Below are positions 51,055-64,000 of a DNA stretch of 64,000 nt, one piece after another. Position 1 is the first letter of the stretch; every line of letters begins with the position of its first letter. The DNA lies in assembly GCF_030013205.1 (NCBI RefSeq), contig NZ_CP122648.1; one strand, written 5' to 3'. The notes under the pieces are model-generated. The model saw nothing but the letters and a program-made list of their open reading frames with translations. It was not told the origin of the DNA and made no database searches. Made by a program: the position numbers and the translations under genes. Origin of the DNA: Escherichia coli. Its GTDB lineage: Bacteria > Pseudomonadota > Gammaproteobacteria > Enterobacterales > Enterobacteriaceae.

Positions 51055-51194
51055 CAATAACCGATTGATTTATAATGTTTTATATATCTTCGTTCCACCA
51101 TGTGTCCACATTCAGTGGAGGGAGAGGGGAGTAAGCCCGCTACATTGTGGGCTTTGTCTTATAGTCTGATCACCGTTTCAAGTCAGTAAGGACA

Positions 51195-51229
51195 CCAAAA
51201 AGAAAACCCGCAGTTTTTACGTTGCGGGT
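51195..51229 (-). terminator. putative terminator of the hok-like transcript
   Basis: minus-strand hairpin ACCCGCAACG-taaaaa-CTGCGGGTT followed by TTCTTTTT. Confidence 0.5.
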
Positions 51230-51316
51230 TTGTTGTTCATGTCTGTGAGATAGGGTGCCTTATCGACCTTACCCTGGCAACCGATTGACGGGGGATTGCT
51301 CCCCCGTCGCGGTTTC

Positions 51317-51457
51317 CTTACTGCTTACACTGTAAGAACGCCGCAAACTCCGCTCCCCAGAATCTCATCCGTATTTCGCACAGCGAACCGTGCAACATCC
51401 AGATGATGAGGATTGCCGTCACGCAGAACGTGATGGCCGTAAGCGATTTTTGCGACA
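51317..51457 (-). CDS. Hok/Gef-family type I toxin (46 aa)
   Basis: manual translation MSQKSLTAITFCVTAILIIWMLHGSLCEIRMRFWGAEFAAFLQCKQ: one TM helix plus the SLCEI..E.AAFL.CK signature of Hok/Gef; a longer overlapping frame (ORF 51325..51612) is mok-like. Confidence 0.7.
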
Positions 51458-51648
51458 TAGCACTTGCTCCTTTTCCGGAGAGGCGCTAACCTTTCACTTG
51501 TCAAGGTAATGCGGTTAGGGCCTCGGTTAAACAGAAACGTTTTCCGGGGCCTTTCCACATCTGGCCTTCGGGTATTCCCTCCGACCATCAGCCGAAAGGC
51601 ACCCGCGCGCAATCTATCTCTTTTTTGTTACTCCGGCAATTCTGCCTG

Positions 51649-51909
51649 TTAATTTTGAGGTAAGGGCAAACTCATCTGATTGTTTCCTTTGTGTGAAGCT
51701 GGCAGTTCATGCCACGGGATACCTTCTGAAGAGTGAGCGCCGGAGGCGTGTTTCGATGTGAATTTATGGAAAGCTTCCAGTGTTGAGAAGCATACACCGC
51801 ATTCTAGGTTGTTACATTGGTAATACTTTTGCCGCACGGTGTTTGAATCATTTTCCGGACGACTGGTGCGGATTCGGGCAGATGCGCCACAAAGCGGACA
51901 ACGGAACAT
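51649..51909 (-). CDS. P2 Ogr/Delta-family zinc-finger late-gene activator
   Basis: N-terminus MFRCPLCG..RTSR..YYQCNNLECG resembles P2 Ogr (Cys2-Cys2 finger); true C-terminus uncertain. Confidence 0.7.
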   Translation of the reverse strand: MFRCPLCGASARIRTSRPENDSNTVRQKYYQCNNLECGVCFSTLEAFHKFTSKHASGAHSSEGIPWHELPASHKGNNQMSLPLPQN

Positions 51910-62247: not shown

Positions 62248-62253
62248 GGAGTC

Positions 62254-62748
62254 ATGGCCATGATGATGATCTACGGCATGTTTGTTTTTGAGCTGCGCAC
62301 GCTGCCGCATCAGCAGTTACAGCAAAACAAAAGCTGGCGGCATGTGAAAAATGAACGCGTTAACCGTTCAGCAAGCTGGCAGTATATCGGTGCAGGTGAT
62401 GATCGCATCGTTCTTTCTGGTATGCTTTATCCTGAAATTACAGGTGGCGAAGTGTCGCTGTCGCTGCTGACCACGCAGGCGTATACAGGACGCCCCTGGC
62501 CTCTTATTGATGGCGTCGGGCAGATTTACGGCATGTATGTCCTGACCGAAACGAATACGACCCGTTCCGAGTTTGATCGCTACGGTAAGGCGAAAAAGAT
62601 AGAATTTTCACTGACCCTTGAACGCTGTGATGAGGATTTGCGGGAGCGCCTGCAATCCTCATCGTTCAGCGATATGCTGTCCGGCTTCAAAGATAAAGTG
62701 ACATCATCCCTTAACAGCGCGGCCAGTTCAGTTAAAGGGCTGTTCTGA
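62254..62748 (+). CDS. phage tail protein (P2 gpU-like)
   Basis: 164-aa ORF; N-terminal MMMIYGMFVFELRT.. and ..WPLIDGVGQIYGMYVL.. resemble P2 gpU. Confidence 0.7.
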   Translation: MAMMMIYGMFVFELRTLPHQQLQQNKSWRHVKNERVNRSASWQYIGAGDDRIVLSGMLYPEITGGEVSLSLLTTQAYTGRPWPLIDGVGQIYGMYVLTETNTTRSEFDRYGKAKKIEFSLTLERCDEDLRERLQSSSFSDMLSGFKDKVTSSLNSAASSVKGLF

Positions 62749-62918
62749 TTTAATGCTGGCCACTCATACCCTCATACCTGGTAATAAGTGGCCAGTCTTA
62801 ACACTCACCATTTGATTGCACCAGTGTTAACGATTTGTTACTGGACATCAGACACGCTGGATAGCCAGTAGAAACATACCATAAAAATTATTACAATAAT
62901 TGGTCACATGATTATCTT

Positions 62919-63482
62919 ATGCTGAATAATAGAGATATGAATATTAATGAACTTAAAGATTGTATTCACTATGAAGTAATCGGTAGCGAGCGTCCTTTCT
63001 CCTGGCGAAAGGCAATTGTTCGCGCAATAAAACATAGAAGAGTTCGTTATTTATTTTGGTGGCGCATAGCCAAATACCTTTTTGATAAAGGCGGATACTG
63101 TCGGAAGATTGCGGGGAAAATAGAACGTTTCATTCTTGATAAATATAATGTAACAGTCCCTTTAACTGTAAATATAGGGAAAGGCTTTGATATTTCTTAT
63201 CTCAACAGTGTTGTTATCGGTCACAAAGTAACAATCGGTGAAAATTGTTCAATAAAACCAGGGGTAACTATTGGGCTGCGTGGTGATTTTAATGATATGG
63301 ATATTGTTATAGGACATAATGTGACCATTGGTTGTAATGCCACCATTCTTGGTGGCAAAGTGCGTATAGGAAACAATGTCACAATAGGTGCTCATGCATT
63401 GGTATTGCATGATATTCCAGATGATTCAACATTCATCACTAAATTTCAGTCTGAAGTTATCTGCTCGTCCTCCCGCACATAA
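62919..63482 (+). CDS. hexapeptide-repeat (left-handed beta-helix) acyl/acetyltransferase, probable prophage cargo gene
   Basis: 187-aa ORF with tandem [LIV]-G-x-x-x-x hexapeptides ([53 protein letters not shown]); AT-rich. Confidence 0.7.
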
Positions 63483-64000
63483 CCCTGATTCATCAGCTCT
63501 GGCCATACGATATCCGGAGCTGTACTGGTGTCAATTCTACTCACTAATACTCTGTATTTTCTCCAGGAATCCAGTTGTGAATTTTCCTCGTTTGTTGCTA
63601 TTTCAAGATTAACTGCATCCTGCAGAATTGCGATGTTATCTGTTGCTTCCTGGATCAACCTTGCCTTTTTCTCTTCCGCTTCCCGTATCCGAAACAGTTT
63701 TTCTGCTTCCTCATCCTTCACCCAGGATACGCCGTCCCACTTCTGATACTCCCCTGCTGGCGACAACCAGGTGACATTCTCTGGTAGCGGTCCGGGTTCA
63801 GAAATAAACAACGCGTCCCCCGATGCCACGTCATAGACCGTTTTACCACGATGGTCTTCAACAATATTCCACGATTCATTTTCACTGTTAAAAACTGCCA
63901 CAAAGCCAGCAGGAATTTCCGGTGGGGCGATATCTGTAGAATTGGCTGGCAGCCCTGTATGAGGTGGAATATATGCGTCACCTTCACCAATAAACTCATT
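63446..64000 (-). CDS. phage tail-fibre assembly protein (Tfa/gpG-like), 5' end outside window
   Basis: minus-strand frame open to window edge (..[44 protein letters not shown]..); the ORF track calls only a GTG-initiated portion 63446..63901. Confidence 0.7.

Follow-up and report, generated by a model that had tools for sequence, protein, structure and literature searches.

A degraded, very probably P88-like prophage with an hxsDBCA cargo operon at the ihfA-btuC locus of Escherichia coli

Boundaries and gene content of the island

We analyzed a window of 64,000 nucleotides of E. coli contig NZ_CP122648.1 (assembly GCF_030013205.1), and established the architecture, junctions, and collinearity of an accessory island in its last part, together with the family assignments of the island's genes (Table 1). 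The island starts at position 51055, directly 3' of the ihfA terminator, as a prior sequence-only reading had proposed; the match to K-12 ihfA-btuC sequence ends exactly at 51054. In K-12, the gap from ihfA to btuC is 100 bp. In ETEC1748, an identical genome, the K-12 sequence picks up again after 16,961 bp, and the island ends at btuC, about 4 kb beyond the window end. Alignment of the K-12 empty site to both island ends reveals a 25-bp overlap, the attachment-site core, which on the ihfA side is the ihfA terminator itself and recurs past the window end, 59 bp before the btuC gene (L001 35317-35341). The search beyond the window for the other att junction and an integrase thus recovered both, with int on the btuC side and half deleted.

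A P88-like phage very probably integrated by tyrosine-integrase recombination at the 25-bp core, re-forming the ihfA transcription terminator and leaving hok-ogr beside ihfA and int beside btuC. Integration of P2 similarly restores the host sequence, with ogr adjoining att and int across it, and the att-proximal location of ogr in the island agrees with the earlier suggestion that it marks a phage end. In contrast, P2 lacks a hok gene beside att, and the attP core reported for P88 is GCCACCCGAAGGTG (PMC5285337) rather than the ihfA terminator.

Table 1. Features of the island and its ihfA-side junction (positions in the window)
Feature	Position	Strand	Evidence
Attachment-site core, ihfA side, GGCCGCTCTGCGGCCTTTTTTCTTT (ihfA rho-independent terminator)	51030-51054	+	K-12 empty site compared with both island ends
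Hok/Gef-family type I toxin gene	51318-51458	-	PHROG 251, MokW-like host killing, E 2.7e-23; PGAP Hok/Gef family protein
sok-like RNA/leader region	51445-51604	-	Rfam sok RF01794
Ogr/Delta-like zinc-finger late-gene activator	51649-51909	-	PHROG 603, E 3.6e-15
hxsD-hxsB-hxsC-hxsA operon, intact, between ogr and D	52162-55559	+	NCBIfam equivalogs
Gene D 3' fragment, last 47 codons, severed by ISCro1	55724-55867	-	Collinear with E1739 D, L005 23025-23170
ISCro1, IS66 family (tnpA, tnpB, transposase), 2,699 bp	55870-58568	-	Sequence, PGAP, E1739 alignment
Gene D middle part	58515-59264	-	L005 23162-23858 at 99.4%; PHROG 52 tail protein, E 4.7e-103
IS2 left-end fragment (IRL and most of insC), 422 bp	59265-59686	+	Junction compared with IS2 and E1739
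Tape-measure gene T without its first 81 codons	59687-62247	+	TIGR01760 tape measure, 290 bits
gpU-like tail protein, intact	62254-62748	+	PHROG 76, E 2e-74
Left-handed beta-helix (hexapeptide) acetyltransferase, cargo	62937-63482	+	Sub-cut-off NCBIfam matches
Tail-fibre assembly gene, cut by the window end, continuing to window-equivalent 64063	63446-64000	-	PGAP, L001 30747-31364

The gene content and strands are those given in the sequence-only reading: hok(-), ogr(-), hxs(+), D fragments(-), tape measure(+), gpU(+), acetyltransferase(+), and fibre assembly(-). The Hok-like protein is 96% identical to its P88 homologue, and the NCBIfam Hok models score under their cut-offs; the sok match extends over the entire model, but its 47.3 bits (E 3.7e-9) fall short of the gathering score, 59. 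Ogr is 96.5% identical to the P88 protein and 38% identical to P2 Ogr, and Pfam Ogr_Delta is assigned to an identical protein. The three tail proteins follow the same pattern, with D 94% identical to P88 D and 44% to P2 gpD, T 94% identical to P88 T and 34% to P2 T, and gpU 98.8% identical to that of P88 and 46% to P2 gpU; the tail-fibre assembly protein is 47% identical to P2 gpG over 64 aa. The acetyltransferase matches NCBIfam serine/polysaccharide O-acetyltransferase models below cut-off. The hok/sok-type toxin module, ogr, and hxsDBCA appear to be still functional. A sigma-70 promoter and terminator scan of positions 50900-56000 gave nothing above shuffled expectation, and a simple pattern search for the Ogr-type late promoter TGT-N12-ACA had no match in the E1739 D/sheath intergenic region.

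Relatives and gene orientation

The closest phages are P88 and other members of Xuanwuvirus (among them 500465-2, Shae_phiSM, PhiR44_2, and P884B11), with seven phages matching at 91-97% DNA identity over hok, ogr, D, T, and U, on a single strand throughout. The corresponding proteins (Hok, Ogr, D, T, and U) are 94-99% identical to those of P88, whereas identities to P2 homologues are 33-48%; P2 shares homologous Ogr, D, U, T, FI, FII, E, and G with the lineage. Assignment of these genes to P2-family tail and regulatory proteins is thus sustained by protein searches, which give Peduoviridae matches with P88 the nearest. The most informative relative is a 36.5-kb prophage in E1739, at the same ihfA-btuC site and 99.9% identical, which is apparently intact by annotation, retaining an integrase gene together with genes for the head, packaging, lysis, and replication, and onto which all window segments map. 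Unlike P88, the island carries hxsDBCA, and it is heavily deleted relative to P88: sheath, tube, E/E', baseplate, lysis, head, terminase, portal, gpA, repressor, and half of int are absent. The suggestion of a defective P2-family prophage is borne out both by Peduoviridae membership and by the missing modules, and the element belongs with the P88 genus on the close identity of its structural and regulatory genes to those of P88-type phages, in both DNA and protein. The island is very probably the remnant of a P88-like (Xuanwuvirus, Peduoviridae) temperate myophage in its native gene orientation, decayed by IS insertion and deletion, and carrying HXS as cargo.

The sequence-only reading had also invoked an IS-mediated inversion, noting the plus-strand T and U against the minus-strand D, ogr, and fibre-assembly genes; in the P2 annotation FI-FII-E-E'-T-U-D-ogr are co-directional, and the window and its relatives do differ from it. 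However, P88 is itself annotated with D(-), sheath to U(+), and tail fibres(-). The arrangement hok(-) ogr(-) D(-) facing sheath-tube-E-E'-T-U(+), followed by tail-fibre genes(-), occurs in P88 and six other phage isolates, in the E1739, O26:H11 11368, F344, MS1657, and STEC384 prophages, and in about 18 further prophage contexts at several chromosomal integration sites. D and sheath-to-U on opposite strands is therefore the ancestral layout of a distinct phage group, Xuanwuvirus, and the window has the order of P88 and E1739, the deleted block aside. Relative to P2, the whole P88 genus has the FI-to-U block inverted with respect to D-ogr and the H-G fibre genes, which is an old genus-level difference and not a strain-level event. 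In this layout D, ogr, and hok share one direction, the sheath-tube-E-E'-T-U operon diverges from the short D/sheath intergenic region, and the tail-fibre and baseplate genes converge from the far side.

A prophage of co-directional P2 order that suffered an IS-mediated T-U inversion in this strain, along with deletion of sheath, tube, and E, would explain the strand pattern and the IS DNA at the D/T junction, but we regard it as very improbable. Every window segment is collinear with the E1739 prophage, an apparently intact occupant of this locus, and none is inverted; the same strand pattern is common to P88 and every related phage and prophage examined, most of which have no IS there. In addition, the target duplication marks ISCro1 as a simple insertion, and the IS2 fragment is single, with no partner copy of IS2 or ISCro1 within the window; inversion end points and partner copies were sought in the E1739 alignment and across the whole window, and none were found. 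Inversion is rejected because the strand pattern is the ancestral Xuanwuvirus arrangement and the window is collinear with E1739. Less probable still, to the point of being hardly credible, is that we are dealing with no phage remnant at all but with a P4-like satellite or a domesticated contractile device of the tailocin type. P4-type satellites do carry Ogr/Delta-type activators, and D, T, and U are contractile-tail parts (PGAP names D a 'contractile injection system protein'), but each segment has its counterpart in a complete prophage of 36.5 kb that has an integrase and genes for the head, packaging, lysis, and replication, and this collinearity excludes such an identity; with sheath, tube, and baseplate gone, a contractile device is moreover impossible here. 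For the P88-like remnant, the reported absence of sheath, tube, and E genes stands, but their native place is between D and T and not, as had been supposed, between the fibre-assembly gene and T. Use of the P2 gene map as a yardstick makes Peduoviridae prophages look 'rearranged' when they are not, since an inverted sheath-to-U operon is native to the P88 genus.

We also considered recurrent disruption of gene D in hxs prophages, and rejected it. D is shorter in the PGAP annotations of the O26:H11 11368 and STEC384 prophages, but translation gives a full open frame, and the short D is therefore a start-site annotation artefact.

Insertion sequences, deletions, and decay

Neither ISCro1 nor the 422-bp IS2 fragment was among the elements listed in the sequence-only reading. 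On both sides of ISCro1 stands ATGCATTT (55862-55869 and 58569-58576), its 8-bp target-site duplication. The element has the ends GTAAGCGACTC... and ...GAGCCGGTTAC with inverted repeats that start GTAAGCG, and contains three ORFs, as in a simple insertion of an IS66 element; comparison with E1739 shows this simple insertion to be in gene D. The IS2 IRL, TAGACTGGCC, begins at 59265, and the fragment coincides with a 2,946-bp deletion, seen in the alignment to E1739 as a gap at L005 23859-26804. The deletion takes in the D 5' end (the first 270 bp, or 90 codons), the initial 242 bp of T, and between them the D/sheath promoter region and the sheath, tube, E, and E' genes, leaving T fused in frame to IS2 insC' as a 978-aa chimeric ORF from 59311. 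There are 2-5 nt of microhomology at the IS2-T join, and one deletion end lies inside IS2, away from any IS end. The proposal of an IS-mediated deletion thus survives in part: IS DNA is present at the junction, but the end is internal to IS2 and not at an IS end, and the deletion is IS-associated, not the adjacent deletion that a transposase canonically makes.

The island has lost DNA beyond the window as well, in two deletions of 12.9 kb and 7.1 kb. The 13.56 kb of retained phage DNA together with 2.70, 0.42, and 0.28 kb (ISCro1, the IS2 fragment, and a 278-bp stretch) makes up 16.96 kb, and with the 22.98 kb deleted makes up 36.5 kb. The 278-bp stretch, also beyond the window (L001 33037-33314), has no match among the fetched relatives, and the ead/partition segment beside it is only 96% identical to E1739, such that the far side may reflect recombination with another prophage rather than simple deletion.

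Decay took separate steps, for which the following is one plausible order. ISCro1 would have entered the 3' part of D, generating the 8-bp duplication, and IS2 the 5' part; we infer from the junction alone that IS2 insertion came before the deletion. Illegitimate recombination at a few bases of microhomology probably then removed the right 0.9 kb of IS2 and 2.9 kb of phage DNA, to T codon 81, and the 12.9-kb and 7.1-kb deletions would have taken the baseplate, lysis, head, packaging, replication, and immunity genes, and half of int. With these gene losses, the element would therefore no longer be able to excise, replicate, or build particles.

The HXS operon and cargo positions

The HXS system defends against phages by keeping their DNA from entering the cell (Li et al., Nat Commun 2026; PMC13128918). 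Its activity was demonstrated with the operon of strain MEM, which gives broad protection against most tested coliphages (PMC13128918). We tested family membership with the NCBIfam equivalog cut-offs, each of the four genes against its own curated model, and all four score above them: HxsD, 91.2 bits (TIGR03976, cut-off 50); HxsB, 558.2 bits (TIGR03978, cut-off 370); HxsC, 398.4 bits (TIGR03977, cut-off 267.9); and HxsA, 159.5 bits (TIGR03979, cut-off 121.65). The residues that HXS needs are the radical-SAM and auxiliary cluster cysteines, LYW and LLNDYxLRE in HxsD, and the signal peptide, HxS repeats, and peptidoglycan-binding domain of HxsA (PMC13128918). The required cysteines are at the exact published positions (HxsB C98/C101 and C399/C402; HxsC C105/C108 and C342/C345), HxsD has LYW at 20-22 and LLNDYSLRE at 56-64, two residues earlier than in the paper's numbering, and HxsA has a 22-residue signal peptide and five HxS repeats at 58-72. 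HxsA also has a putative C-terminal peptidoglycan-binding domain, as suggested by the full-length TIGR03979 match and by the weak resemblance of residues 152-192 to TIGR02869, the model for a spore cortex-lytic enzyme. The island operon thus resembles the published one in its four genes, their D-B-C-A order, its equivalog matches, and its conserved cluster cysteines. By homology to the published system, we infer that HXS would be active in this strain, with the radical-SAM enzymes HxsB and HxsC and with HxsD maturing a periplasmic HxsA effector that would block entry of incoming phage DNA.

The operon stands out from its surroundings in base composition, with a G+C content of 37-45% vs 50-57% in the phage structural-gene DNA further along the island. 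PADLOC 2.0, which has no HXS model, reports only weak radical-SAM similarity of hxs to viperins, and has no match for the acetyltransferase, Hok, Ogr, or the alternative cargo genes. In a tblastn search of 50,697 phage records with HxsC, the only matches were distant (≤35% identity, in Leptospira and Campylobacter phages), and no sequenced phage isolate among them has this hxs cargo.

The components of the island are all of known kinds, an IS-riddled P88-type remnant and the recently characterised HXS. The strain belongs to a porcine ETEC/O139 lineage, for which the intact HXS is the relevant content, and HXS in such a pig strain could influence phage therapy or phage typing. The remnant is an example of defence cargo outliving the phage that carried it in. 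It is possible, if on balance somewhat doubtful, that selection has kept the remnant as a small defence island, made up of HXS and a hok/sok addiction module and fixed in place once integrase and the excision functions were gone. Retention of this type is favored by the Hxs proteins, which have the same accessions as those of the apparently intact E1739 prophage even though about 63% of the phage DNA is gone, by at least three other independent decay forms that keep hok-ogr-hxs (L016, L022, and ETEC4068), and by the broad protection in the published test of HXS (PMC13128918). Roughly 45 E. coli genomes fall in the ≥99% hxs class. Nonetheless, IS elements lie inside hxs genes in TD225-C4, 13KWH46, and B1S11, and the remnant is very young (100% hxs identity), so that the intactness of the operon could be chance.

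Published defence hotspots of P2-like phages are A-Q (tin/old) and G-FI (fun/Z) (PMC9122126, PMC9519451), which like the slots in the window are variable Peduoviridae cargo positions with anti-phage genes. The position of HXS between ogr and D is a third slot, unnamed in PMC9122126 and PMC9519451. It is empty (about 12 bp) in P88. In two sibling prophages it is occupied: one, likewise at the ihfA site, has a two-gene cassette of the GapS6a family, and the other a 340-aa gene of no known type. As prophage cargo, the HXS of the window differs from the 77% of E. coli hxs operons that lie outside predicted prophages (PMC13128918). We tentatively propose, as an idea that falls somewhat short of being probable, that the ogr/D junction is a third Peduoviridae hotspot for anti-phage cargo and that IS-grounded remnants make phage-borne HXS look 'chromosomal'; if this is true, the published 77% would be partly an artefact of prophage decay. 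Once the FI-to-U inversion is allowed for, the acetyltransferase slot, from U to the fibre-assembly gene, corresponds in position to the fun/Z slot. The acetyltransferase occupies this same slot in E1739 and F344, whereas a DNA invertase is found there in P88 and MS1657, accompanied in P88 by alternative tail-fibre genes.

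Gene content and insertion site

All genes named in an earlier, sequence-only reading of the window were recovered by ORF listing and family searches, with the content and strands that it had proposed. G+C content is 37 to 45% over the hxs genes, compared with 50 to 57% in the phage structural genes, and a full-length, sub-threshold Rfam match to sok lies just upstream of the Hok gene.

Features of the island and its left flank (window coordinates)
Feature	Position	Strand	Basis
pheT and ihfA	ihfA end 51012	+	ORF list, family searches
Hok-family gene	51318-51458	-	
Ogr/Delta-like gene	51649-51909	-	
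hxsD, hxsB, hxsC, hxsA	52162-55559	+	
Gene D 3' piece, 47 codons	55724-55867	-	
IS66-family element (ISCro1)	55870-58568	-	
Larger D piece	58515-59264	-	
IS2 fragment, 422 bp	59265-59686	+	
Tape-measure gene (T), 5'-truncated	end 62247	+	
gpU	62254-62748	+	
Hexapeptide acetyltransferase	62937-63482	+	
Tail-fibre assembly gene	from 63446, past window end	-	

About 12 complete E. coli genomes, from porcine ETEC and O139:H1 strains, match the interval at 100% identity; in one of them, ETEC1748, the island is flanked by ihfA and btuC. Alignment of the empty K-12 site to both island ends leaves a 25-bp overlap, GGCCGCTCTGCGGCCTTTTTTCTTT, which is the ihfA terminator; copies of this core are at window positions 51030-51054 and 59 bp before btuC, with 16,961 bp between them. 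Because the core ends at 51054, the island start of 51055 given in the sequence-only reading is exactly the first phage base. An Rfam STnc540 match (50954-51110, plus strand; 41.9 bits, gathering score 38) runs from the 3' end of ihfA across the terminator/att core and takes in 56 nt of the phage. Given this extension into the phage, the sequence that follows the terminator in the Rfam model may have been replaced upon integration. All of the island components are of known kinds, and the sequence is already present in annotated public genomes.

An ancestral gene order

Among phages, P88 and other Xuanwuvirus members (Peduoviridae) match best, at 91 to 97% identity, with all matched pieces in each record on one strand; the window proteins are 94 to 99% identical to those of P88, but only 33 to 48% identical to those of P2. 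The island is a defective P2-family prophage, as had been proposed, yet its gene order is not P2-like. In P2, the late genes are all co-directional, with V-W-J-I-H-G and fun/Z followed by FI-FII-E-E'-T-U-D-ogr, whereas P88 has hok, ogr, and D on the minus strand, then sheath, tube, E, E', T, and U on the plus strand, followed by the invertase and fibre genes and then baseplate genes on the minus strand.

The mixed strands had been attributed to an IS-mediated inversion, and this part of the proposal did not hold. Strain E1739 has the P88 layout: its ihfA-btuC site contains a prophage of 36.5 kb, apparently intact and 99.9% identical to the window, and BLAST comparison of the two yields only forward, collinear segments. 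The same layout occurs in O26:H11 11368, F344, MS1657, and STEC384, in eight of 10 contexts with an identical Ogr protein, and in all 10 contexts in which the P88 D protein occurs, which represent several integration sites on the chromosome. Because E1739 is collinear and its relatives share the layout, the strand pattern is the ancestral arrangement of the genus, the outcome that the earlier reading itself had named as contrary to its view. The whole of Xuanwuvirus has the FI-to-U block inverted with respect to P2, with one breakpoint corresponding to the G/FI (fun/Z) junction and the other to the U/D junction.

Lesions relative to the E1739 prophage

The IS-associated deletion that had been suspected is evident in comparison with E1739. 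A 2,946-bp block (positions 23859-26804 of the E1739 region, L005) is absent from the window and is replaced by 422 bp of IS2; the loss takes in the 5' 270 bp of D, the D/sheath intergenic region, the sheath, tube, E, and E' genes, and the 5' 242 bp of T. The intact left inverted repeat of IS2 adjoins D, and the fragment stops inside insC, joined to T at 2 to 5 nt of microhomology. With one end internal to the IS, the event does not qualify as a canonical adjacent deletion made by transposase; it is most economically read as an IS2 insertion into D that was followed by illegitimate recombination. The reading frame continues across the IS2-T join, which yields a 978-aa InsC'-'T chimeric ORF (59311-62247, plus strand; the N-terminal 109 residues of InsC plus T from residue 82) that is possibly driven by an IS2 promoter; PGAP annotates two pseudogenes.

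The 2,699-bp ISCro1 element interrupts D in its 3' part as a simple insertion, with an 8-bp duplication, ATGCATTT, on both sides. The element has entered gene D three times independently, the other copies being at L013, 5738-8436, and L003, 13383-16081. The sites, equivalent to E1739 positions 23170, 23237, and 23382, fall within 212 bp, in the same orientation and each with a separate flanking duplication, which suggests a local target preference.

Past the window, a 12.9-kb deletion extends from the 5' part of the fibre gene through the portal gene, and a 7.1-kb deletion from parM through half of int. The island size closes at 16.96 kb (13.56 kb retained, 2.70 kb of ISCro1, 0.42 kb of IS2, and 0.28 kb of unmatched DNA). 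A 278-bp stretch (33037-33314 of the ETEC1748 region, L001) has no match among the fetched relatives, and the following ead/partition segment (33315-34040) is only 96% identical to E1739, compared with 99.9 to 100% elsewhere, a hint that this region recombined with another prophage instead of undergoing simple deletion.

Decay has gone further in sister strains: in ETEC4068, a full IS2 separates ogr from hxsD, and T carries an internal deletion. Other independent decay forms of the prophage, ETEC4068 among them (L016 [CP050196], 2530-3186; L022, 428-3043; L004, 9445-10673), retain hok-ogr-hxs and have lost structural genes: one has a D fragment fused to terminase and portal, in another IS66 directly adjoins hxsA, and the third is the form with the full IS2. 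Conversely, TD225-C4, 13KWH46, and B1S11 have IS elements inside hxs genes.

Defence cargo and variable slots

The hxsDBCA operon lies between ogr and D, an interval of about 12 bp in P88, and its proteins share their accessions with those of the apparently intact E1739 prophage. The anti-phage activity of HXS was shown in 2026: HxsB, HxsC, and HxsD mature a periplasmic effector, HxsA, that prevents the entry of phage DNA, and 110 of the 113 coliphages in the test were restricted (PMC13128918). All four window proteins score above their NCBIfam equivalog cut-offs, and the residues mutated in that study are kept at matching residue numbers; the signal peptide of 22 residues and the five HxS repeats are also conserved. 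We infer that HXS is active in the window strain.

The hxs genes are present in 151 of 5,426 complete E. coli genomes, 45 of which carry a class with 99% or higher identity to the operon in the window, and every member of this class examined is in a P88-like prophage at the ihfA site. For the 91% and 75% classes, the members that were sampled are in integrative elements with a relaxase. The elements in EC4, Ceylon31, and DETEC-P829 (L010 to L012) also encode an integrase, one beside ssrA, and the neighbours of hxs in them include other genes of defence type: ABC-three-component system proteins, a SIR2 protein, a UvrD-like helicase, and DUF6119/TIGR04141 proteins.

The ogr-D junction looks like a variable slot for defence cargo. 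Two P2 hotspots are named in PMC9122126 and PMC9519451, and this slot is not among them; it is the sole mildly new angle here. Its contents vary among prophages with an identical Ogr protein (L018 [OZ039162], 3688-6806; L017, 5787-6809; window, 51910-55723). In one sibling prophage, also at the ihfA site, the slot is occupied by a GapS6a-family antiphage gene (NF047935, 136 bits, cut-off 90) and a 930-aa partner, and in another by a 340-aa gene; the P88-type slot is empty.

The acetyltransferase gene, for which there was no PADLOC match, is in the slot that in P88 and MS1657 contains the invertase and alternative fibre genes. This slot, from U to the fibre-assembly gene, corresponds in position to the fun/Z hotspot of P2; it is occupied by a DNA invertase in P88 and MS1657, and by a serine acetyltransferase gene of another size (573 bp) and protein accession in O26:H11 11368.
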